Below are positions 20,909 to 32,000 of a stretch of 32,000 nucleotides of DNA, one piece after another. The stretch is from positions 2,310,001-2,342,000 of the forward strand of contig NZ_CP066019.1 in NCBI RefSeq assembly GCF_016127575.1, written 5' to 3'. Positions within the stretch are counted from its first letter, which is position 1, and the number at the start of each line of letters is the position of its first letter. A program made the position numbers and the translations under genes. The notes beneath the pieces were generated by a model. It searched no databases, was not told the origin of the DNA, and worked only from the letters and a program-made list of their open reading frames with translations. Source of the DNA: Cupriavidus necator. GTDB taxonomy: Bacteria > Pseudomonadota > Gammaproteobacteria > Burkholderiales > Burkholderiaceae.

Positions 20909-22234
20909 TCAGCTCCGCGATTGCATCAGCTGGCGTGGAATCGCCAGGATCAGCACCGCCGCGGCCAGCATCAGCCCGGCCAGCGCCAGCACGCCCAGCG
21001 AGATGCTGCCGGTGCTCTGCTTGATGCCGCCCATCAGCACCGGGCCGATCAGGCCGGCCAGGCTGGCCGCGCTGTTGATCATGGCAATGCCGCCAGCCGC
21101 GGCGGTGCCGGCCAGCACGCGGCCCGGCAGGCCCCAGAACATCGACAGCGTGGCCATCAGGCCGGAAATGCCGATAGTCAGGAACACCATCGCCATCACC
21201 GTGTTGTGCGGGAACAGCGTGCTCGCCCACATGCCGACGGCGGCCACCAGCAGCGGCAGCGCGGAGTGCAGGCGGCGCTCGCCGGTGCGCTCGGCGTGCG
21301 CGGCGTTGACGTTCATCGCCACGCACGCGACCGCATACGGGATCGCCGTCAGCATGGCGATCTCAAGCGGCGACGACATCCCGGTCGACTGGATGATGGT
21401 GGGCAGCCAGAACACCAGGCCGTAGTTGCCGATATTGAACAGCAGGCAGATCGCCATCAGCATCCACAGGACCGGCGACTTGAGCGCGGCGATGAAGCGG
21501 GTGTTCTTCTTCGCGTTCTCGGTGGTCAGCGTGTGGGTGATGGCGCCCGCCTCGGCCGGCGTGAGCCATGGCGCGGCCTCCGGCGACTCGGGCAGCATGC
21601 GCAACAGCAGCAGGCCCAGCACGATGGCCGGGAGCGCCTCGATCAGGAACATCCACTGCCAGCCTTGCAGCCCGTGCAGGTCATGCGTGGCTGACATCAG
21701 CGCGCCGGAGATCGGGCCGCCCAGCACCATGCCCAGCGGCATCGCCAGGAACAGGATCGACATGATGCGCGACTGCCGGTCGGCCGGGTACCACTTGTTC
21801 AGGTACATCACCGCGGCCGGGAAGAAGCCGGCCTCGGTCACGCCCAGCAGGAAGCGCGCCGCGTAGAACTCCATCGGCGTGGTCACGAACATGGTCGCGG
21901 CGGATACCAGCCCCCACAGGATCATGATGGCCGCCATGCTGCGGCGCATGCCGAGGCGGTAGATCAGCAGGCTGCTGGGCACCTGGCACAGCATGTAGCC
22001 CCAGAAGAAGATGCCCGCGCCCAGGCCATAGACCACGTCGCTCAGCCCCAGCGCCTGCTGCATCTGCAGCTTGGCGAAGCCCACGTTGACCCGGTCCAGG
22101 TAGCTGAAGAAATAGCACAGCACGATAAACGGCACGATGCGGCGCGTGACCTTGGCGAACGCGGCGGCGGCGGCGTCCGGCAACACCGCGGCGTGGCCCG
22201 GGGACTGCGGGATGGCTGGCTTGGCCAGGGACAT
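20909..22234 (-). CDS. MFS transporter, anion:cation symporter (ACS) type, 441 aa
   Basis: ORF 20909..22291 trimmed to ATG 22234 after AAGGAGGA. Motifs: RRIVPFIVLCYFFSYLDRVNVGFAKLQM, GLGAGIFFWGYMLCQVPS. About 12 TM helices. Confidence 0.9.
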   Translation of the reverse strand: MSLAKPAIPQSPGHAAVLPDAAAAAFAKVTRRIVPFIVLCYFFSYLDRVNVGFAKLQMQQALGLSDVVYGLGAGIFFWGYMLCQVPSSLLIYRLGMRRSMAAIMILWGLVSAATMFVTTPMEFYAARFLLGVTEAGFFPAAVMYLNKWYPADRQSRIMSILFLAMPLGMVLGGPISGALMSATHDLHGLQGWQWMFLIEALPAIVLGLLLLRMLPESPEAAPWLTPAEAGAITHTLTTENAKKNTRFIAALKSPVLWMLMAICLLFNIGNYGLVFWLPTIIQSTGMSSPLEIAMLTAIPYAVACVAMNVNAAHAERTGERRLHSALPLLVAAVGMWASTLFPHNTVMAMVFLTIGISGLMATLSMFWGLPGRVLAGTAAAGGIAMINSAASLAGLIGPVLMGGIKQSTGSISLGVLALAGLMLAAAVLILAIPRQLMQSRS

Positions 22235-22300
22235 GATGGATCTCCTCCTTGTACGGGCGCGCGGTATCCGGCGCCATGGAGATGCCATCATAGCGGAGTA

Positions 22301-22340
22301 TGAAACAAACGTTCCACTAACGTTTACACTGAAACAAACG
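22301..22340. promoter_or_regulatory. Repeated TGAAACAAACG boxes plus a perfect palindrome upstream of the MFS/amidase operon
   Basis: TGAAACAAACG occurs at 22301-22311 and 22330-22340 (direct repeat, 29-nt period). AAACGTT-CCACT-AACGTTT lies at 22307-22325. A TATGAT -10 candidate (minus strand) lies at 22292-22287, and the proximal box overlaps a poor -35. Confidence 0.4.
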
Positions 22341-22373
22341 GTTTTATTCCTTCACGTGACGCGGAAGACCCGC

Positions 22374-22415: not shown

Positions 22416-23504
22416 TCAGGCTGGTGCGCGCGGCTTGTCCGCCGCACGCTTGCGCGGGGCCTTGCCGCCGCCTCTTGCCGGCGGCGCTGCCGGCCCGGTG
22501 ACATCCTGCGAGGCGCCGACCATGGTCAGGGCGTTGCCGTGCTCGTCCAGCGTGACCTCGCCTTCCTCATGGATGTCGCGATGGCTGCCGTCGGGCAGCT
22601 GGATGCGGTAGTTGACACTGTACGGCGCCTTGTCGACGATGGCCGCGCGGATGGCCGCCTGCACGCGCGCGCGGTCCTCCTCGACGATCGACGCCAGGTA
22701 GCGCTCCATGGTCACCTTGAACGCCTGCGGGGCCCAGCCGAAGATGCGGTAGGCCTCGTCGGTCCAGGCGCAGTCGTCGGTCTGGATATTCCAGTACCAG
22801 CCGCCCAGGTGGGCAATCTCCTGCGCCTTGGCCAGCAGCGCCTCGTTCTGGCGCAGCGCAGCCTCGGCGCGGCGCCGCTCGGTGATGTCCAGGCTGACGC
22901 CGATCATCTTGACCGGGCGCTGGTCGAAGTCGCGCACCAGCGTGGCCCGCGACGAGATCCAGCGCGTGGTGTCCCCGTGCACGACGCGGAACTCCCACTC
23001 GTGCATCTCCTGCGCGCCCAGCGTGCGCGCCAGCACCTCGCGCAGGCGCGCGACATCGGCCGGATGCACGCAGGCCCAGAAGTCGTCCATGTTGCGGATG
23101 TGGCGGCCGAACAGCGTGACGTCGTTGGACGAGTAGGTCAGGCCATCGGTCAGCACGTTCCATTCCCAGGTGACGATGCCCGAGACCTCCTGCGCGAACT
23201 TCATGCGCGCCTCGCTCTCCATGATCTCCGCCAGGTGCTTCTGGCGCAGTTCCTTGATGTGTGGGTCAGAGGCGGTGCTGGCCTCCAGGTCGGCGATGGC
23301 CTGCTCGCCGTAGCGCAGCCACAGCCAGTTGACGCCCAGGAAGCGCGCCAGCGCGAGCAGCCGCTCGTATTCGATCTCGCCGCCGCGGGTCCACTTGTGC
23401 ACCGCCGACGGCGATACCGACAGCGCCTCTGCCACCTGCTTGAGCATGATCCTTTTGCCTTCCAGCACCCCCTTCAGGCGCGTGGCAAAAGTGTCTTCCG
23501 TCAT
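22416..23504 (-). CDS. One-component transcriptional regulator: N-terminal XRE/Cro-type HTH plus two PAS domains plus a basic Pro/Ala/Lys/Arg tail
   Basis: HTH: FATRLKGVLEGKRIMLKQVAEALSVSPSAVHKWTRGGEIEYERLLALARFLGVNWLWLRYG. PAS 1: GIVTWEWNVLTDGLTYSSN...EFRVVHGDTTRWISSRATLVRD...MIGVSLDITERRRAE. PAS 2: HLGGWYWNIQTDDCAWTDEAYRIFG...YRIQLPDGSHRDIHEEGEV...MVGASQDVT. The ORF track starts at 23510 (MPM...). The GGAGG spacing favours the second ATG at 23504. Confidence 0.85.
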   Translation of the reverse strand: MTEDTFATRLKGVLEGKRIMLKQVAEALSVSPSAVHKWTRGGEIEYERLLALARFLGVNWLWLRYGEQAIADLEASTASDPHIKELRQKHLAEIMESEARMKFAQEVSGIVTWEWNVLTDGLTYSSNDVTLFGRHIRNMDDFWACVHPADVARLREVLARTLGAQEMHEWEFRVVHGDTTRWISSRATLVRDFDQRPVKMIGVSLDITERRRAEAALRQNEALLAKAQEIAHLGGWYWNIQTDDCAWTDEAYRIFGWAPQAFKVTMERYLASIVEEDRARVQAAIRAAIVDKAPYSVNYRIQLPDGSHRDIHEEGEVTLDEHGNALTMVGASQDVTGPAAPPARGGGKAPRKRAADKPRAPA

Positions 23505-23631
23505 GGGCATCCCCTCCGCTTTTTTTCAACCGATGGTGAATTGAGTAACTCGAACCTTACACCATCACCGCAAATCGCGCGAATTGATAGCCATGGACCA
23601 TCAAGCGAGCAAATTTCATCGGTTTTTTGAA

Positions 23632-23661
23632 TTGCAATACACCTGCGCTCCTCACTAGACT
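23632..23661 (+). promoter_or_regulatory. Candidate sigma70 promoter of the cntA-badh-betA operon
   Basis: TTGCAA (23632-37), 18 nt, TAGACT (23656-61). The same architecture recurs at 29627-29655, at the same distance from the conserved 32-nt box. Confidence 0.45.
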
Positions 23662-23680
23662 TCACTTCACATCACCAACA

Positions 23681-23712
23681 GTAATTTAATTAACTGTTAG
23701 TGAATCGATAAG
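23681..23712 (+). promoter_or_regulatory. Conserved 32-nt box, copy 1 (candidate operator or 5'-UTR element)
   Basis: GTAATTTAATTAAC-tgtt-AGTGAATCGATAAG compares with copy 2 GTAATCTAATTAAC-ctac-AGTGAATCGACAAG. That is 26 of 28 non-spacer positions identical, and the box contains the TTAATTAA palindrome. It lies 19 nt downstream of the candidate -10 and 28 nt upstream of the cntA ATG. Confidence 0.6.
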
Positions 23713-23739: not shown

Positions 23740-24861
23740 ATGCAAGAGACCACCGCCCCCGCCTGCGGCACCACCCCGCCGCTGGCCTATACGCTGCCGG
23801 CCCACTACTACACCTCGCAGGAAGTCTTCGAGCAGGAGAAGAAGACCATCTTCGCGCGCAGCTGGGTGTGTGTGATGCACAAGAGCCAGGTGGCCGAGAA
23901 CAACCAGTACGCCACAGTGAAAGTGGCCGGCGAGAACGTGTTCGTAGTGCGCGGCCGCGACGGCGTGTTGCGCGCGTTCTACAACGTCTGCCCGCACCGC
24001 GCCCATGAGCTGTTTGCGGATGGCGCGGGCAAGGCCAAGAACGTGATCACTTGCCCGTATCACGCCTGGTCGTTCGGCCTGGACGGCAAGCTGATCCACG
24101 TGCGCAACGCCGAGAACGTGCCGGGCTTCTGCAAGGACAACGCCGGCCTGACGCCGGTGCGCGTGGAAGAATTCTGCGGCCTGGTCTTCGTCAACCTGGA
24201 CATGGACGCGAAACCGCTGGCCGAGCTGGCAGGCGGCCTCAACGACGAGATCCGCGCGCGCTGCCCGGATGTCGACAAGCTGGTGCCCGCGCACAAGCTC
24301 ACCTACGAGATGAAGGCCAACTGGAAGGTGGTGGTCGACAACTACCTGGAATGCCTGCACTGCCAGACCGCGCACCCGGCGCTGGTCGAGTCGATCAGGA
24401 TGGAGACCTACAAGCACGAAGTGCGCGGCCTCTACACCAGCCAGGTCGGCCAGACGCGCTCGGGCAGCGACGCCTTCACCTATGACAGCGACGCCCCCAA
24501 CACCGACTTCGCCGCCTACTGGCTGTGGCCCAACGTGACGCTGAACGTGCTGCCGGGCGATGGCAACTACGGCGTGTTCTACATGTTCCCGGTGGATGCC
24601 GACACCACCATCCAGCACTTCGAGTTCTACTTCCGCGACAGCACGCCCACGGCCGAGCAGGAGCAACTGATCGAGTACTACAAGAACGTGCTCAAGCCCG
24701 AAGACCTGAGCATCGTCGAATCGGTGCAGCGCGGCCTGAAGTCGCGCGGCTACCGCAACGGGCAGGGCCCGCTACTGGTCACCGACGACAAGACCTCCGC
24801 CATCGGCGAGCACGGCGTGCAGCACTTCCAGCAGATGGTGCTCGACGCCCTGGCCGCCTGA
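23740..24861 (+). CDS. cntA: Rieske [2Fe-2S] non-haem-iron oxygenase, CntA/YeaW family (carnitine monooxygenase-type oxygenase component), 373 aa
   Basis: Rieske motif: LRAFYNVCPHRAHEL...KNVITCPYHAWSFGLDG. Catalytic-domain strings VDNYLECLHCQTAHP and VLKPEDLSIVESVQRGLKSRGY match my recollection of E. coli YeaW almost word for word. The length (~373 aa) fits CntA/YeaW rather than GbcA (~430 aa). The RBS is AAGGAGA. The physiological substrate here is not established. Confidence 0.82.
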   Translation: MQETTAPACGTTPPLAYTLPAHYYTSQEVFEQEKKTIFARSWVCVMHKSQVAENNQYATVKVAGENVFVVRGRDGVLRAFYNVCPHRAHELFADGAGKAKNVITCPYHAWSFGLDGKLIHVRNAENVPGFCKDNAGLTPVRVEEFCGLVFVNLDMDAKPLAELAGGLNDEIRARCPDVDKLVPAHKLTYEMKANWKVVVDNYLECLHCQTAHPALVESIRMETYKHEVRGLYTSQVGQTRSGSDAFTYDSDAPNTDFAAYWLWPNVTLNVLPGDGNYGVFYMFPVDADTTIQHFEFYFRDSTPTAEQEQLIEYYKNVLKPEDLSIVESVQRGLKSRGYRNGQGPLLVTDDKTSAIGEHGVQHFQQMVLDALAA

Positions 24862-24889
24862 AACGAACCACCGAACCGGAACCGCAGCA

Positions 24890-26356
24890 ATGATCCTGAC
24901 CCAGCTCTATATCGACGGCCAGTGGCAGTCGCCCATCGACCAAGGCACGCGCGCCATCCTGAGCCCGGCCGACGAGTCCGTGATCGCCCAGGCAGCCGAA
25001 GCCACCCGCGCCGACGCGCGCCTGGCCATCGCCGCTGCGCGCAAGGCCTTCGACGGCCCGTGGCGCCAGACGACGATCCGTGACCGCGCCAGGCTGCTGA
25101 ACAAGATCGCCGAACTGATTGACCGCGATGCCGAGAAGCTCGCCCGACTGGAGTCGCTCAACACCGGCAAGACGCTGACCGAGAGCCGCACCGACATGGG
25201 CGATATCGCCGCCACCTTCCGCTACTTTGCGGGGCTGGTCGCATCCGAGTCGGGCGCCGTCAACGAAGCCCCGCACCATGTGATCAGCCGCACCCTGCGC
25301 GAGCCGGTTGGCGTGTGCGGCCTGATCACGCCGTGGAACTACCCGCTGCTGCAGGCCGCGTGGAAGATCGCGCCCGCGCTGGGCGCCGGCAATACCGTGG
25401 TGATCAAACCCAGCAACCTGACGCCGCTGACCACGCACCACTTCACGCAACTGGTGGCCGAGCTGGACCTGCCGCCGGGCGTGTTCAACCTGGTGACCGG
25501 CGGCGCCGAAGTCGGTGCCGAACTGGCCGAGAGCCTGGACGTGGACCTGGTGTCCTTCACCGGCGGCGCCTATGCCGGCGAAAGCATCATGAAGGCCGCC
25601 ACCGGCAACTTCAAGCGCATCGGCCTGGAGCTGGGCGGCAAGAACCCGAACATCGTGTTTGCCGATGCCGACCTGGACGCAGCGGTCGACTACGCGCTCA
25701 ATGCCGCGTTCTTCCACGCCGGGCAGGTCTGCTCCGCCGGCTCGCGCCTGATGATCGAGGACGGCATCTATGATGCATTCATCAGCCGGCTGGCCGAGCG
25801 CCTGCCGCGCATCGTGATCGGCAACGGCTTCCACGGCGAGACCCAGATGGGCCCGGTGCAGTCGGCGCAACAGCACGAGAAGATCCTGGGCATGGTGCAG
25901 GCCGGCATTGCCGAGGGTGCACGGCTGGTCCACGGCGGCAAGCGGCCGGCTGGCGACGTCTTCAAGACGGGCTACTGGCTGGAACCGACGCTGCTGGCCG
26001 ACGTGACGGCAGACATGAAAATTGCGAAGGAGGAGATTTTCGGGCCGGTGATCACGGCCGAGCGCTTCCGCTCCGAGGAAGAGGTGCTGCGTGCCGCCAA
26101 CGACACCCCGTACGGCCTGGCCGGCGCGGTCTGGACCCGCGACCTGGACAAGGCCAACCGGATGTCGCGCGGGCTGCGCTTCGGCACGGTGTGGGTCAAC
26201 GACTACCACCCGTACTTCCCGGAAGCGCCGTGGGGCGGCTACAAGGCGAGCGGCATCGGCCGCGAGCTGGCCCGCATCGGCCTGGACGAGTACACCGAAC
26301 TCAAGCACAGCTATATCAACCTGGCCCCCAAGGCGATGGGCTGGTTCGGCGCCTGA
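24890..26356 (+). CDS. betB: NAD(P)+-dependent betaine aldehyde dehydrogenase (GbsA/ALDH9-type), 488 aa
   Basis: Motifs: LESLNTGKTL, EPVGVCGLITPWNYPLLQAAWKIAPALGAGNTVVIKPS, ELGGKNPNIVF (catalytic Glu), FFHAGQVCSAGSRL (catalytic Cys), EEIFGPV, YGLAGAVWT, APWGGYKASGIGRELA. Overall it looks closest to Bacillus GbsA-type BADH as I recall it. Confidence 0.82.
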   Translation: MILTQLYIDGQWQSPIDQGTRAILSPADESVIAQAAEATRADARLAIAAARKAFDGPWRQTTIRDRARLLNKIAELIDRDAEKLARLESLNTGKTLTESRTDMGDIAATFRYFAGLVASESGAVNEAPHHVISRTLREPVGVCGLITPWNYPLLQAAWKIAPALGAGNTVVIKPSNLTPLTTHHFTQLVAELDLPPGVFNLVTGGAEVGAELAESLDVDLVSFTGGAYAGESIMKAATGNFKRIGLELGGKNPNIVFADADLDAAVDYALNAAFFHAGQVCSAGSRLMIEDGIYDAFISRLAERLPRIVIGNGFHGETQMGPVQSAQQHEKILGMVQAGIAEGARLVHGGKRPAGDVFKTGYWLEPTLLADVTADMKIAKEEIFGPVITAERFRSEEEVLRAANDTPYGLAGAVWTRDLDKANRMSRGLRFGTVWVNDYHPYFPEAPWGGYKASGIGRELARIGLDEYTELKHSYINLAPKAMGWFGA

Positions 26357-26441
26357 GCGCAGCTGACTTCGCAATCGCGCGCGCGGCAGGCCCTCCCCCG
26401 GGCCGCCACGCACGGCGTCAAGCAAACAAGGAGATTGCACC

Positions 26442-28178
26442 ATGCAGGCAATCCATGAGTACGACTACATCATCGTCGGCGCAGGCTCGGCCGGCTGCGT
26501 GCTGGCCGCGCGGCTGACCGAGGATGCCGATGTCTCGGTGCTGCTGCTGGAAGCGGGCGGCCCCGACTGGCGCCTGGACTGGCGCACCCAGATGCCGGCC
26601 GCGCTGGCGTATCCGCTGCAGGGCACCACCTATAACTGGGCCTACGTGACCGAGCCCGAGCCGCATATGAACAACCGGCGCATGACGCAGGGCCGCGGCA
26701 AGGGGCTGGGCGGTTCGTCGCTGATCAACGGCATGGTCTATATCCGCGGCAACGCGATGGACTACGACGGCTGGGCCGAAAACCGTTCGCTGGAGAACTG
26801 GAGCTACGCCGACTGCCTGCCCTATTTCCGCAAGGCCGAGACCTATGACAAGGGCGCCAACGACTACCACGGCGGCAACGGCCCGCTGCACGTGACCACG
26901 CCCAAGGCCGATATCAGCCCGCTGTTCCGCGCCTTTATCAAGGCCGGCGAGCAGGCCGGCTATGGCCAGACCGATGACCTGAACGGCTACAAGCAGGAAG
27001 GCTTCGGCCCGATGGACCGCACCACCACCGCGCGCGGGCGCCGCTGTAGCACCTCGCTGGCCTATCTGGACCAGGCCAAGGACCGGCCCAACCTGACCGT
27101 GCATACGCGCGCGCTGGCGGACCGCATCCTGTTCTCCGGCCAGCGCGCCATCGGCGTCTCGTACATCCAGGGCGACCATGTGCGCGAAGCGCGTGCGCGC
27201 CGGGAAGTGATCGTCAGCAACGGCGCGATCGCCTCGCCGCAACTGCTGCTGCGCTCGGGCGTGGGCAATGCGGACGAGCTGCGCGCATTTGGCATCGAGT
27301 CGGTGGCAGACCTGAAGGGCGTCGGCGAGAACCTGCAGGACCACCTCGAGATGTACCTGCAGTACGAATGCACCAAGCCCGTATCGCTGTACCCGGCGCT
27401 GAAGTGGTGGAACAAGCCCGCGATTGGCGTCGAATGGTACCTGCGCGGCACCGGCACCGCGGCCTCCAACCACTTCGAGGCGGGCGGCTTTATCCGCAGC
27501 AGCGATGACTTTGCCTGGCCCAACCTGCAGTACCACTTCATCCCGCTGGCGATGAACTACGACGGCAGCAACCCGGTGCAGTCGCATGGCTTCCAGTGCC
27601 ACGTGGGCTCGATGCGCTCGCCCAGCACCGGCTTTGTCAAGCTGGCCAGCCGCGACCCGCGCGTGAAGCCGCGCCTGCTGTTCAACTACATGGCGCACGA
27701 CGTCGACTGGCGCGAGTTCCGCGCCGCGGTGCGCCTGACGCGCGAGATCATCGGCCAGCAGGCGATGGACCAGTTCCGCGGCCGCGAGATCAAGCCCGGC
27801 ATGATGATCCAGAGCGATGCCGAGATCGACGCCTTCGTGCGCGAGCATGCCGAGACCGCGCTGCACCCGTCCTGCACCTGCAAGATGGGCGACGCTTCCG
27901 ACCCGATGGCGGTGGTCGACAACCAGGGCCGCGTGCACGGGCTGTCTGGCCTGCGCGTGGTCGATGCCTCGATCATGCCGAAGATCATCACCGGCAACCT
28001 GAACGCGCCCACCATCATGATGGCCGAGAAGCTGGCCGACGTGATCCGCGGCCGCGCACCGCTGCAACGCTCGACGGCGCCTTACTACAAGGCCGCCACC
28101 GCGCGCGGCGGGGCGCAGGCAGACGCGGAGCGGCATCCGCCAGCCACTGCGCGAATGCCGATGCCGATGCCCGCCTGA
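26442..28178 (+). CDS. betA: Choline dehydrogenase (GMC oxidoreductase), 578 aa
   Basis: [22 protein letters not shown] is the FAD fold. Long strings match my recollection of E. coli BetA: [107 protein letters not shown]. The RBS is AAGGAGA. It has a C-terminal tail of about 20 aa ending MPMPMPA. Confidence 0.9.
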
Positions 28179-28347
28179 CCAGGCGGCGCGGCGCGCGGGC
28201 TTCCCGCCAGAACCCCTGACCGACGCATGTGCTGCCGGGACTTCGGTCCCCGGCGGGCAGCGTGCGTCCGGTCGGCGCGCCGCGCACCCACACCACAAAG
28301 CCGGCTACCCAGAACAAACCCAGACCGGCTGCAAGGAGGAGACTTCC

Positions 28348-29238
28348 ATGCTGCGCAAATACTTTGATTCAAGACGGGCCCTGCAAGGCGCCCTGCCCCT
28401 GCTGCTGTGCCAGGCGCTGAGCGCGCAGGCGCAGACCAGTGCCGAGGCCGAAACCAGGCTGGCCGTGGCGCCGGTGCCGCAGGTCACGGCGACCGTGCCG
28501 CCGGCCGAGGCCGCATCGCCAGCGCCGCTGAGCGCCAACCTGACCCTGACATCGCAATACGTATCGCGCGGCTTCCGCCAGACCTGGGGCAGGCCTGCGG
28601 TGCAGGGCGGCATCGACTACGCCCACCCGAGCGGCTTTTCCGCGGGCACGTGGATGTCGAGCATCAGCGACAAGTTCATCGAGGGCGGCACCGTCGAATG
28701 GGATCTGTATGCCGGCTACACCGGCACCATTGGCGACTTCACCTATGCCGGGCAGGTCTACTACTACCTGTACCCGGGCGCGAAACTGCAGTACGCGCAG
28801 ACCAAGTACAACTACGGCGAAGCCGTCGCGTCGCTGACGTACAAGTGGTTCAACGTCAAGTACTGGCTGACCTATACGCCCGACTACTTCGGCTACAACA
28901 GCGCCTCGCTGCTCGCCGGCAATGACCTGCACAGCCGCGGCTCCGGCTACCTGGATATCAACGGCACCTTCGACCTGGGCCACGGCGTCACGCTGCTGCT
29001 GCACTACGGCCAGGAGCGCGTGCGCAACTTTGCCGCCTACAACTTCCGCGACGTGCGCGTGGCGCTGTCCAAGGCCTTCGAGGGCAGCTGGACCGTGACC
29101 GGCGCCTATACCCGCGGCTGGGGGCGTACCGACGTCTACGACAAGTACACCACCGGGGCGCTGGATTCGTCCGGCAACCCGTCCGTTTCCAACCCGCTGA
29201 AAAGCACGTTCCTGGTCTCGGTGACCAAGACGTTCTGA
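28348..29238 (+). CDS. TorF-family (TIGR02001-like) putative outer-membrane porin, 296 aa
   Basis: Signal peptide ...LLLCQALSAQA. Family-typical N-terminal strands: ANLTLTSQYVSRGFRQTWGRPAVQGGIDYAHPSGFSAGTWMSSI and WDLYAGYTG. It has an alternating beta-strand pattern and a terminal aromatic (TKTF). The RBS is AAGGAGGAGA. Confidence 0.75.
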   Translation: MLRKYFDSRRALQGALPLLLCQALSAQAQTSAEAETRLAVAPVPQVTATVPPAEAASPAPLSANLTLTSQYVSRGFRQTWGRPAVQGGIDYAHPSGFSAGTWMSSISDKFIEGGTVEWDLYAGYTGTIGDFTYAGQVYYYLYPGAKLQYAQTKYNYGEAVASLTYKWFNVKYWLTYTPDYFGYNSASLLAGNDLHSRGSGYLDINGTFDLGHGVTLLLHYGQERVRNFAAYNFRDVRVALSKAFEGSWTVTGAYTRGWGRTDVYDKYTTGALDSSGNPSVSNPLKSTFLVSVTKTF

Positions 29239-29277
29239 CGGCAATCTTCAACCGCTGTTTTACCGCTTCCTACCACC

Positions 29278-29580
29278 ATGGCCTCCCTGGGTCTTACCGA
29301 CGCGACCGGACTTGTCGGCGTTGCCGCCTACGTTGCCGCGCATTTTGCCGTGCAGGTCCTGCACAAATCCCCGACCGGCAGGCTGGCCGTCGTCCTCAAC
29401 GTGATCGGGCCGAGCTGCATCCTGATCTCGCTGACCGGCGCCTTCAACCTGGCGTCGTTCCTGACCCAGTGCTTCTGGCTGGGGCTGACGCTGCTGGGCT
29501 GGTGGCGCAACCGGCGGGCGGGGCATGCGGTGGTGGAAACGCTGGGCGGACCGCGCCCGGGACAGCCCGTGCAGCAGTAA
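29278..29580 (+). CDS. Small 3-TM membrane protein of unknown function, 100 aa
   Basis: Three hydrophobic segments: GLVGVAAYVAAHFAVQVL, LAVVLNVIGPSCILISL, ASFLTQCFWLGLTLLGWW. Codon third-position GC matches its neighbours. There is no clear SD. The topology resembles small SemiSWEET/CBU_0592-like proteins, but that is unverified. Confidence 0.5.
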   Translation: MASLGLTDATGLVGVAAYVAAHFAVQVLHKSPTGRLAVVLNVIGPSCILISLTGAFNLASFLTQCFWLGLTLLGWWRNRRAGHAVVETLGGPRPGQPVQQ

Positions 29581-29626: not shown

Positions 29627-29655
29627 TTGCCTTGGCTCCCAGCCGTTTCTATACT
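29627..29655 (+). promoter_or_regulatory. Candidate sigma70 promoter of the APC permease-cntB unit
   Basis: TTGCCT (29627-32), 17 nt, TATACT (29650-55), followed by TCAC-rich sequence as at the cntA promoter. The conserved box starts 18 nt downstream. Confidence 0.45.
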
Positions 29656-29673
29656 CACCGCGAAACACTATTG

Positions 29674-29705
29674 GTAATCTAATTAACCTACAGTGAATCG
29701 ACAAG
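29674..29705 (+). promoter_or_regulatory. Conserved 32-nt box, copy 2
   Basis: GTAATCTAATTAAC-ctac-AGTGAATCGACAAG; see copy 1 at 23681-23712. Confidence 0.6.
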
Positions 29706-29923
29706 AAACCCGAAAGCCTGAGACCCGTAACGGGCCGCATGGCAACCCCGGGATGACAACAGGAGACAAGGATGAGAAACGCCCCCAGAATCCCCGCCAG
29801 CCATTCCCGACCGTCGTAACCCCCGGCAGGCAGTACCGCAACGTACCCACCCAGACCGCAGACGGCAGACCGTGACGGAGCGCAGCTCCAGATAAACGGC
29901 AACCCGGGAAGCAAGGAGACATC

Positions 29924-31567
29924 GTGTATTCACAGAAAGACGTGCTGTCGATCGGCGCGCAGGCGCCGATCGCCCCCGCCCAACCGCAGCAGCAAACCCA
30001 ATCGCATGAACTGCAGCGCACCCTGACCTGGAAGGATGCCTTCTGGGTCACCAGCGGCGTGCCCGCGGGCGTGCTCTTCACCATCGGCGGCGTGTCCGCC
30101 ACCATCGGCAACCCGGCCTGGGTGATCTGGATCCTCGCCATCCTGGTCGGCTTTGCGCAGTGCTTCGTCTATGCCGAGATCTCGGGCCTGTATCCGCACA
30201 AATCCGGCGGCGCCTCGGTGTATGGCGCGCTCGGCTGGGTGCGCTACAGCAAGTTTGTCGCACCGGTCTCGGTGTGGTGCAACTGGGTGGCCTGGTCGCC
30301 GATGCTGGCGCTGGGCACCAGCCTCGCCGCCGGCTACATGCTGAGCGCGCTGTTCCCGCCCGATTCGGTCATCAACACCTGGCAACTGACACTGGTGGAC
30401 CTGGGCTTTGTCAGCAAAGGCCTGACGCTGCGGGTGAACTCCACCTTCATCCTGGCCACCGCCTTCCTGCTGGTCACCTTCAAGCTGCAGCACAGCGGCG
30501 CCTCGGCCGCGGCCACCACGCAGCGCATCCTGGGCATTGCCTCGCTGACGCCGCTGGTGCTGATCGCGCTGGTGCCGATGTTCACCGGCGACATGCCGTC
30601 CACCAACTTCCTGCCGCTGCTGCCGCTGACCCATGACGGCGCCGGCGCCCCGGTGCTGGGCGGCTGGAACGCCGCCGGCATCAGCACCGCCATGGGCGCG
30701 ATGTTCCTGGCGTGCTGGTCGACCTTCGGCTTCGAGACCGCGGTCTGCTACACCCGCGAGTTCAAGGATCCGCAGAAGGACACCTTCAAGGCGATCTTCT
30801 GGTCCGGCGTGCTGTGCCTGTTCATGTTCATCGCGGTGCCGATCGCCTTCCAGGGCTCGCTGGGCCTGTCGGGCATGCTGGAACCGGCCATCGTCGACGG
30901 CTCCGGCGTGGGCGCGGCCATGGCCAAGTTCGTCGGCGGCGGCGCGGTGGTGTTCAACGTGATCGTGGTGATGCTGGTGCTGGCGATCCTGCTGATCGTG
31001 ATGACCTCGATGATGGGTTCGTCGCGCACGCTGTACCAGGCCTCGGTCGACGGCTGGCTGCCGCGCTACCTCTCGCACGTGAACGAGCACGGCTCGCCCA
31101 CGCGCGCGATGTGGACGGACCTGGTGTTCAACCTGTTCCTGCTGCTGATGTCGAACTACATGGCAGTGCTGTCGATCAGCAACGTCTGCTACATGATCTT
31201 CGTGTTCCTGAACCTGCAGTCGGGCTGGATCCACCGCATGGACCGCCCGGACTGGGCCCGCCCGTACAAGTGCAAGAACTGGCTGCTGGCACTGGGCGCG
31301 TTCTTCGGCTTCTTCGACCTGGCCTTCGTCGGCGCCGGCGCCAACTTCCAGGGCGAGCACACGCTGCGCAACGGCCTGATCGCCGCGCTGCTGATCGTGC
31401 CGGTGTTCGTGTACCGCCACTACATCCAGGACAAGGGCCGCTTCCCCGAGTCGATGCGCCGCGACATGGAGCTGCCCAATGCGCGCGCCGGCGTGCTGCC
31501 CTACGTGGCGCTGGTCGTCGGCGGGCTGGTGGTGTGGATCGCCGCCAGGCTGACGGTGATCACCTGA
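29924..31567 (+). CDS. APC-superfamily permease (amino acid/amine transporter), 547 aa
   Basis: GTG start 7 nt after AAGGAGA. TWKDAFWVTSGVPAGVLFTIGG, YAEISGLYPHKSGGASVYG and SMMGSSRTLYQASVDGWLPR are typical APC strings. About 12-13 TM helices. Confidence 0.85.
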   Translation: MYSQKDVLSIGAQAPIAPAQPQQQTQSHELQRTLTWKDAFWVTSGVPAGVLFTIGGVSATIGNPAWVIWILAILVGFAQCFVYAEISGLYPHKSGGASVYGALGWVRYSKFVAPVSVWCNWVAWSPMLALGTSLAAGYMLSALFPPDSVINTWQLTLVDLGFVSKGLTLRVNSTFILATAFLLVTFKLQHSGASAAATTQRILGIASLTPLVLIALVPMFTGDMPSTNFLPLLPLTHDGAGAPVLGGWNAAGISTAMGAMFLACWSTFGFETAVCYTREFKDPQKDTFKAIFWSGVLCLFMFIAVPIAFQGSLGLSGMLEPAIVDGSGVGAAMAKFVGGGAVVFNVIVVMLVLAILLIVMTSMMGSSRTLYQASVDGWLPRYLSHVNEHGSPTRAMWTDLVFNLFLLLMSNYMAVLSISNVCYMIFVFLNLQSGWIHRMDRPDWARPYKCKNWLLALGAFFGFFDLAFVGAGANFQGEHTLRNGLIAALLIVPVFVYRHYIQDKGRFPESMRRDMELPNARAGVLPYVALVVGGLVVWIAARLTVIT

Positions 31568-31646: not shown

Positions 31647-32000
31647 ATGACTGACACGCTCCGCGTGCGCGTCGGCCGCGTCGAGCCGCTGGCCGCCGGC
31701 ATCAAGCGCTTCACCCTGCAACCCTGCGACGGCGGCGCGCTGCCCGCCTTCGACAGCGGCAGCCACGTGGTCGTCCATATGGACGGCGGCCGGCTGCGCA
31801 ACGCCTATTCGCTGACCAGCACGCTGGGCGAGCCCGGCCACTACCAGATCGCAGTGCGGCTGGAAGAGGCTTCGCGCGGCGGCTCGCGCTATATGCACGA
31901 GCAGGTCGGCGAAGGCGACGAACTGCATATCGGCGCGCCCGGCAACCTGTTCAGCCTGGACCACGGCGCCGGCCGCCACCTGCTGATCGCCGGCGGCATC
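31647..32000 (+). CDS. cntB: PDR/VanB-type flavin reductase with (expected) C-terminal 2Fe-2S domain, CntB/YeaX family; N-terminal 118 aa only (runs off the window)
   Basis: Not in the ORF track because it is edge-truncated. Hand translation: MTDTLRVRVGRVEPLAAGIKRFTLQPCDGGALPAFDSGSHVVVHMDGGRLRNAYSLTSTLGEPGHYQIAVRLEEASRGGSRYMHEQVGEGDELHIGAPGNLFSLDHGAGRHLLIAGGI. The strings LPAF..GSHV.V.M, NAYSL, YQIAVRLEE.SRGGSR and LFIAGGIG-type match my recollection of E. coli YeaX. Confidence 0.82.
   Translation, partial: MTDTLRVRVGRVEPLAAGIKRFTLQPCDGGALPAFDSGSHVVVHMDGGRLRNAYSLTSTLGEPGHYQIAVRLEEASRGGSRYMHEQVGEGDELHIGAPGNLFSLDHGAGRHLLIAGGI

Follow-up and report, generated by a model that had tools for sequence, protein, structure and literature searches.

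We analyzed a 32,000-nucleotide stretch of the Cupriavidus necator genome (RefSeq assembly GCF_016127575.1, contig NZ_CP066019.1, positions 2,310,001 to 2,342,000 of the forward strand), referred to below as the window, which carries a catabolic island and the gene for a regulator that joins an XRE helix-turn-helix (HTH) to PAS domains. An initial annotation had described a 32-nt box at the head of both transcription units of this island. Having compared the region with related loci, we consider it likely that the box is the core of an operator to which dimers of the XRE-PAS protein would bind, repressing both units and the regulator's own gene. The first transcription unit spans 23740..29580 on the plus strand, divergent from the regulator gene; the second begins at 29924 on the same strand and extends past the end of the window at 32000. 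The second copy of the box is found in the interval that separates the CBU_0592 gene from the permease gene. The genes concerned are the following.

22416..23504, minus strand: XRE-PAS one-component regulator of 362 amino acids, with Pfam HTH_3 (E 3.5e-07) and PAS_3/PAS_4
23740-24861, plus strand: CntA-like Rieske oxygenase, a full-length homologue of carnitine monooxygenase CntA (6y8j, E 3e-121)
24890-26356, plus strand: betaine-aldehyde-dehydrogenase-like (betB-like) enzyme, by Pfam and NCBIfam
26442-28178, plus strand: choline dehydrogenase BetA, an equivalog match at 887 bits against a cut-off of 732
28348-29238, plus strand: TorF-family porin, by Pfam and NCBIfam
29278-29580, plus strand: CBU_0592 membrane protein, by NCBIfam
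29924-31567, plus strand: APC permease, scoring 788 bits (cut-off 690) as NCBIfam NF053774, "TMAO permease" (TMAO, trimethylamine N-oxide)
31647 to the window end, plus strand: CntB-like reductase, whose N-terminus aligns with the DmmA-like_N/Fer2 protein of a related Cupriavidus locus (L002)

The island unites a CntA/CntB-like oxygenase pair, BetA, a BetB-like dehydrogenase and a permease that scores as a TMAO permease.

Both copies of the box were found as described, GTAATTTAATTAAC-TGTT-AGTGAATCGATAAG at 23681-23712 and GTAATCTAATTAAC-CTAC-AGTGAATCGACAAG at 29674-29705, with 26 of 28 positions identical once the 4-nt spacer is excluded. The box pattern, allowing up to 3 mismatches, matched 2 times in the 32 kb, against 0.00 matches expected from 100 shuffles. 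While the box itself stood, its boundaries did not: the conserved unit begins 10 nt further upstream, at 23671-23704 and 29664-29697. Alignment of orthologous loci revealed this functional unit to be a 34-bp double operator, consisting of two imperfect 15-bp palindromes, O1 and O2, with the consensus TNAC-N5-GTNA and an A/T-rich gap of 4 nt between them. The copy ahead of the Rieske operon (module B) reads ATCAC-caaca-GTAAT-ttaa-TTAAC-tgtta-GTGAA, and the copy ahead of the permease gene (module C) reads AACAC-tattg-GTAAT-ctaa-TTAAC-ctaca-GTGAA. The A/T-only palindrome TTAATTAA, which had been singled out as unusual and does stand out in a window of 68% G+C, forms where O1, the gap and O2 join. 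The "TCAC repeats" reported downstream of the -10 element are present, but are in part the left half of O1. A TCGAYAAG-like flank follows O2 in both modules only within the Cupriavidus clade and not in Crenobacter, Chromobacterium or Ralstonia. The sites and promoter elements are listed here, with scores from a position weight matrix (PWM) that was trained solely on sites of other genomes and then applied to the window.

23526..23540, unstranded: site A, TCAACCGATGGTGAA (TCAAC-CGATG-GTGAA), a single palindrome and candidate autoregulatory operator; PWM 14.5, fifth in the window
23554..23563, minus strand: GGTGTAAGGT, 13 nt before site A on the regulator's strand, containing TAAGGT as a candidate -10 of the regulator promoter
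23632..23637, plus strand: TTGCAA, candidate -35 of module B, 18 nt before TAGACT and with a T-tract just upstream
23656..23661, plus strand: TAGACT, candidate -10 of module B
23671..23685, unstranded: O1-B, ATCAC-CAACA-GTAAT; PWM 21.4; A4, C5, G11, T12 and A14 invariant or nearly so in 23 unique sites
23690..23704, unstranded: O2-B, TTAAC-TGTTA-GTGAA; PWM 23.3, the highest in the window; A23, C24, G30, T31 and A33 invariant
23705..23712, plus strand: TCGATAAG, the 3' end of the box as earlier described, a Cupriavidus-clade flank
29627..29655, plus strand: candidate promoter of module C, TTGCCT (29627-29632), 17 nt, TATACT (29650-29655); 9/12 to consensus
29664..29678, unstranded: O1-C, AACAC-TATTG-GTAAT; PWM 20.8; fits WWHAC-N5-GTDAW
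29683..29697, unstranded: O2-C, TTAAC-CTACA-GTGAA; PWM 20.5; homologous C modules lie 5' of the permease gene elsewhere

The five best PWM scores in the window belonged to the four O1 and O2 15-mers and to site A, with the next-best non-site at 9.2. The pattern WWHAC-N5-GTDAW gave 7 matches at 4 sites, where 0.41 would be expected. A possible fourth double operator 5' of an MFS gene (22312-22345, two mismatches) was rejected, being a different direct repeat with PWM scores of 3.5-4.3. This repeat, AACCGTTTGTTTCA / AACGTTTGTTTCA, occupies 22300-22345 on the minus strand, between the regulator terminator and the MFS-amidase genes, with the MFS transporter gene (20909-22291) downstream of it, and probably belongs to another regulator.

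To place these sites in context we compared about 25 related loci, fetched both by way of the regulator protein and by way of the DNA pattern. Conservation was counted over 23 distinct 34-mers from 20 loci, and spacing and promoter elements over 29 orthologous sites. In Cupriavidus, Crenobacter, Massilia, Chromobacterium, Ralstonia and Neisseriaceae alike, the A-C of the left half and the G-T-n-A of the right half show little or no variation. Of the 23 unique sites, 96-100% have complementary bases at palindrome positions 4/12 and 5/11, which gives the site dyad symmetry. The central five bases of either palindrome are free to vary, even where the Cupriavidus regulators are 96-97% identical to that of the window. 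Invariant half-sites around drifting spacers are the mark of DNA that a protein dimer reads. The distance from the centre of O1 to that of O2 is 19 bp in 28 of the 29 orthologous sites and 20 bp in one metagenomic lineage.

We then scanned one genome from each of 185,579 species with a degenerate form of the double-operator pattern, for which a rough chance estimate at uniform base composition is about 26 matches. The scan matched 46 stretches. Fourteen of them came from GC-rich Burkholderiales and Neisseriales (Cupriavidus, Chromobacterium, Crenobacter, Neisseriaceae JH1-16 and a Pseudoduganella metagenome-assembled genome), and all 14 lay inside the island, either between the regulator gene and the Rieske or aldehyde-dehydrogenase gene or 5' of the permease gene. 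The other 32 came from unrelated genomes, most of them low in GC, and had no island homologue within 8 kb of the match, except that a Pelagibacteraceae locus (L025) has one 40%-identical aldehyde dehydrogenase. A search for the motif across related genomes, as foreseen in the initial annotation, was here run in reverse, and it confined the GC-rich betaproteobacterial matches to the island. The XRE-PAS protein had been named as the only regulator in reach within the window; the comparison strengthens that assignment, since its gene is the only regulator gene common to all loci. The motif in turn was present in every orthologous locus examined and in three paralogous ones. Together, the symmetry of the sites, their invariant half-sites, their travelling with the regulator gene between genera and into paralogous systems and their absence elsewhere in those genomes favor the proposed shared operator of the XRE-PAS protein.

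Matches in Gammaproteobacteria and Pelagibacter (L019, L040, L048, L025) were treated as unrelated because no regulator or island homologue lies near them, apart from the L025 aldehyde dehydrogenase. Two Amphritea species share an identical 31-nt match between apparent transporter genes (L040 2011-2041, L048 2826-2856); no regulator homologue was found near it, and it may serve an unrelated protein. A search of a plasmid collection was uninformative, its best match being a Sphaerotilus plasmid with just betB and betA in another context, without the regulator or the box.

The promoter spacings given in the initial annotation were confirmed at 18 nt for module B and 17 nt for module C, as was the start of the box 19 nt (B) and 18 nt (C) after the -10 hexamers. 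O1 itself begins 8-9 nt past the -10 hexamer in both window modules. TAGACT or TACACT is found 8-9 nt before O1 in the B modules of Cupriavidus, Crenobacter, Massilia and Ralstonia, where a TTG-containing hexamer is also retained at 17-19 nt, and TATACT is found 5-8 nt before O1 in 7 of 7 C modules (Cupriavidus, Crenobacter, Neisseriaceae JH1-16). Overall, a TANNNT hexamer precedes O1 by 0-9 nt in 28 of 29 sites, with a TTG-containing -35 a further 17-19 nt upstream. Modules ahead of Rieske or aldehyde-dehydrogenase genes have the order T-tract, TTG, TAGACT, while those ahead of the permease have GATAYAAATCTT, TTG, TATACT. Conservation from genus to genus holds for either type separately, and outside the operator the two cannot be aligned with each other. 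What had been called a duplicated promoter-plus-box module is therefore duplicated only as regards the operator; the island has two different promoters that share it.

With transcription predicted to start about 7 nt after the -10 hexamers, the 10-nt extension alters where the site would sit on the transcript. The box had been placed at roughly +14 to +45; on the revised boundaries the operator would start at about +3 and O2 would end at about +37. Promoter occlusion fits a start at about +3 better than the downstream roadblock that was originally suggested.

The third element reported near the regulator gene, a degenerate half-site GTGAATTGAGTAAC (23535-23548), overlaps a real site, but does not match a box half within 3 mismatches. 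The real site is the full palindrome of site A, 22-36 nt before the regulator start codon, and the start itself (MTEDTF) agrees with the orthologues. Cupriavidus, Crenobacter, Massilia and L008, a metagenomic locus, all have TTAAC-N5-GTGAA at the corresponding place, some 20-35 nt ahead of the regulator's start codon, and site A is conserved in position in all orthologous loci. The nearby GGTGTAAGGT, which is kept between Cupriavidus and Crenobacter, could provide the -10 of the regulator promoter. The comparative evidence, in the form of a full palindrome at a conserved position before the regulator gene, favors the autoregulation through a third site that had been predicted.

An AlphaFold2 model of the regulator, built from a 41-sequence alignment with a mean pLDDT (predicted local distance difference test score) of 87.8, places a five-helix HTH domain at the N-terminus, followed by a long helix (residues 67-107) and a pair of PAS domains. 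In structural comparison the model came closest to sensor modules with tandem PAS domains, for example the FixL PAS dimer 8js5, at a template-modelling (TM) score of 0.70 on the target. The fold search returned no solved full-length analogue joining tandem PAS domains to such an HTH, and a sequence search of the PDB with the regulator gave PAS-domain matches only. PAS modules of the tandem-sensor kind often dimerize, which fits a model with one dimer per palindrome. Orthologues and paralogues all have the same recognition-helix region, AVHKWTRGGEI. The family of the N-terminal domain is a small one: among 1.84 billion representatives it numbers 268 clusters at E of 0.001 or less, and only about 20 clusters align across the whole 100 residues at roughly at least 50% identity.

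We propose the following mechanism. XRE-PAS dimers would bind O1 and O2 at both promoters through the N-terminal helix-turn-helix, possibly with cooperativity between them, and the bound protein, covering about +3 to +37, would block open-complex formation by RNA polymerase or its exit and so repress transcription. At the single palindrome of site A the protein would act on its own gene as a negative autoregulator. Sensing of a ligand by the tandem PAS domains would free the DNA of the protein, and all units would then be induced together. This ligand is probably a quaternary amine, for example choline or a related substrate or product; choline or some other trimethylammonium compound is suggested by the conserved core of the predicted regulon, a betB-like gene and betA.

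Several observations weigh against this operator model or parts of it. A sigma-70 consensus scan returned the module C promoter (9/12) as its sole match and missed that of module B, which agrees with the consensus at 8/12. The model also fails to account for the A/T-rich junction, whose conservation exceeds that expected of a passive gap. At a centre spacing of 19 bp the two dimers would bind to different sides of the DNA helix, and over the wider family the spacing ranges from 17 to 20 bp; both facts weaken the idea of a fixed tetramer. One Cupriavidus lineage (L002 and L003) has kept the permease leader and lacks the second promoter and operator, module C, so the second operator is dispensable. 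By score, site A (14.5) is within chance, with 18.8 reached in 1 of 50 shuffles, and its support is therefore its conserved position. The weak module B promoter and the well-conserved junction would both be accommodated if the XRE-PAS protein were an activator, or if the real promoter lay inside the junction with another geometry, and GTAATTTAATTAAC does hold the -10-like hexamers TTTAAT and TAATTT. We nevertheless consider this improbable. TANNNT with a TTG-containing -35 is kept before O1 in 28 of 29 sites even though the flanks of the two module types cannot be aligned, inspection found no suitably spaced -35 for the internal hexamers, and just 35 nt, ribosome-binding site included, separate O2-B from the start codon. 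Moreover, operator sites that cover +1 usually repress.

The operator could instead belong to a global or unlinked transcription factor, the linkage to the XRE-PAS gene being incidental. The link of site to protein is drawn from sequence comparison, and genes for LysR, Crp-like and AraC/GlxA regulators do lie near the site in individual loci. No one of these genes recurs from locus to locus, as the XRE-PAS gene does without exception; at the stringency of the scan those genomes hold no copy of the motif anywhere else, a copy lies in the regulator's own upstream region, and paralogous XRE-PAS genes in other genera adjoin the same motif. A different factor therefore seems to us unlikely, to about the same degree as an activator. 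A palindrome in the 5' leader might alternatively act as an RNA hairpin that controls the stability or translation of both transcripts, which the initial annotation had offered as its second reading. The module B 34-mer (23671) does fold (-9.3 kcal/mol, z = -4.1), the two copies in the window both have the sense orientation of their leaders, and a hairpin of the whole unit over 23 sites gave a covariation score of 0.21 against 0.158 for shuffled alignments, a score reached by 5 of 500 shuffles with shared ancestry uncorrected; pair 3-32 appears as CG, AU and UA. Against this, the module C 34-mer (29664) has z = -1.3 and the whole leaders z = -0.9 and -0.8, and the window gave no Rfam match at gathering score, with hits only at noise level at E of 10 or less around both boxes. 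Spacer positions pair in about half of the sequences, as expected for columns of A and T only, and the two local 15-mer hairpins lack covariation over the 23 sites, their third base pair being complementary in 13-17%. It is base identity and not pairing that is conserved. Site A is a lone palindrome before a gene on the opposite strand, and in Chromobacterium the -10 abuts O1, so that the 5' arm would not be transcribed. With folding, covariation and Rfam tests negative or marginal, we regard control at the RNA level through this element as very improbable. That the box is a dispersed or mobile repeat, akin to a repetitive extragenic palindrome or miniature inverted-repeat transposable element (REP/MITE-like), which landed twice in the island is scarcely credible: an A/T-rich palindromic sequence does occur twice in a window of 68% GC, but each genome has 1-2 copies at fixed island positions (at scan stringency), which is not the behavior of a dispersed repeat, the window holds the described sites only, no repeat structure flanks them, and the conserved positions are confined to the half-sites. 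Repression by XRE-PAS dimers at the double operator is the explanation that we retain.

The composition and arrangement of the predicted regulon vary between loci. C modules were found 5' of the permease gene in L004, L031, L032, L035, L039 and L042, and in Crenobacter the permease/reductase unit lies on the other side of the regulator gene, still with its own promoter and double operator. Chromobacterium has extra double operators before an EamA transporter gene directly downstream of the regulator gene (L006 11906-11939, L014 7676-7709, L050 1867-1900), and in Ralstonia a double operator of the same design precedes an EamA transporter gene that likewise directly follows the regulator gene (L007 11549-11582), so the predicted regulon differs between genera.

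The regulator and enzymes are 96-97% identical to those of several Cupriavidus species, which assigns the window to that genus. Between betaproteobacterial families, identities of 85-97% were seen for the regulator and enzymes among Crenobacter/Neisseriaceae (L004, L039, L042), Cupriavidus (L002, L013, L020 and others) and Massilia/Pseudoduganella (L005, L029). These values suggest that the island has moved horizontally. The Pseudoduganella metagenome-assembled contig, whose regulator is 95% identical to that of the window, may be a binning artefact.

The leader of the permease gene (29706-29923) is long and has features of its own. It contains a small upstream open reading frame (29773-29820) with a strong ribosome-binding site, reading MRNAPRIPASHSRPS to the stop, and homologous frames occur in Cupriavidus, Crenobacter and Neisseriaceae JH1-16. 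After this frame comes a conserved helix, CCGY/RCGG (helices at about 29866-29898), with a compensatory change from U-A to C-G in 2 of 7 sequences, and inside this helix is a GGAG/CUCC hairpin that closely precedes the ribosome-binding site of the permease gene. No Rfam family matched the leader. Because the leader is present in L002 even without the promoter and operator module, it looks like a separate element of RNA-level or translational control.

More distant homologues of the regulator, at 36-42% overall identity, were found in Burkholderia (L055), C. taiwanensis (L057) and Pseudomonas putida (L059). Each adjoins a cluster of Rieske oxygenase, DmmA/CntB-like reductase, aldehyde dehydrogenase and transporter genes, and each cluster has a TNAC-N5-GTNA pair just past a -10-like hexamer, with centres 17-18 bp apart. 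The CntA-like clusters linked to these paralogues carry different transporters (BCCT, NCS1) and extra dehydrogenases. The Pseudomonas qingdaonensis P0073 locus (L058) has neither an oxygenase cluster nor the motif, so not every member of the family fits the pattern.

The layout resembles that of several known systems. OR1-OR2 of lambda and 434 are tandem operators of phage-type XRE/Cro-CI repressors, and the present case is like them in its HTH_3-type domain, in its adjacent dyad sites (about 14-17 bp), whose outer bases are conserved while the centre varies, and in having two side-by-side sites that are predicted to overlap a promoter, plus a further candidate site for autoregulation. It differs in that the sensor is two PAS domains after a long helix rather than a CI-type C-terminal domain, that the sites lie past the -10 and not across the -35 and -10, and that the target is a catabolic island and not a phage switch. 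BzdR of Azoarcus and PuuR of E. coli are XRE-family catabolic repressors with a ligand-binding domain and are induced by pathway metabolites. They share with the present regulator an N-terminal XRE HTH, a small-molecule-sensing domain and, on the proposed model, repeated operators over a catabolic promoter and induction by a metabolite of the pathway, which is a likeness of design; their sensors have shikimate-kinase-like and cupin folds, unlike the tandem PAS domains here, and their operator sequences differ. In enterobacteria, betA, betB and betT are controlled by BetI, a TetR-family repressor encoded divergently with its operator in the shared intergenic region. The island likewise has a divergent regulator and a probable operator in the shared intergenic region, with a betB-like gene and BetA as predicted targets, but the regulator is of the XRE-PAS type and would be a non-orthologous replacement. 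Neither the island genes of the window nor the six orthologous loci that were checked (L002-L008) gave a TetR_N match, and a BetI/TetR-type bet operator was rejected for want of a TetR-family gene.

The nearest published system by domain order is FG214 of Fimbriimonas ginsengisoli, a heme-binding HTH-PAS switch that binds a palindromic promoter region as a dimer, with binding governed by the cofactor or ligand state of the PAS domain (bioRxiv 10.64898/2026.03.15.711900). Like the XRE-PAS regulator it has an N-terminal HTH followed by PAS; it differs in its single heme-binding PAS domain and GC-rich site and is not described as XRE-type; the likeness is one of domain order. MmyB-like regulators such as MltR are reported to act as activators in actinomycete antibiotic clusters, in which an XRE HTH and a PAS-like ligand module act over pathway-specific genes (PMC3406030). 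The XRE-PAS protein shares that plan and has canonical PAS_3/PAS_4 domains instead of an MmyB-type ligand domain; we rejected an MmyB-like system because the Pfam scan of the regulator gave PAS_3, PAS_4 and PAS only.

We found no paper on the regulator family or the motif in a literature search whose coverage mostly excludes subscription journals, so earlier work is possible; the family is apparently undescribed. The arrangement is a conventional repressor-operator mechanism and leaves the understanding of gene regulation unchanged. Tentatively, and with somewhat less than an even chance of being right, we suggest that XRE and tandem-PAS proteins with the invariant AVHKWTRGGEI form a small family of sensors for quaternary-amine catabolism in Beta- and Gammaproteobacteria, serving choline oxidation genes and trimethylamine-releasing CntA-type Rieske clusters. 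They would share one operator grammar, paired TNAC-N5-GTNA with centres 17-20 bp apart over the transcription start, and would replace BetI as the choline switch in several betaproteobacteria. If confirmed, the model would provide a family of regulators without a described member with an operator motif, a regulon and a sensor open to testing. The layout of promoter, double operator and PAS sensor could be adopted as a switch for inducible expression in Cupriavidus and related bacteria, and the genes under its predicted control connect it with the way in which bacteria turn over choline, carnitine and trimethylamine compounds.

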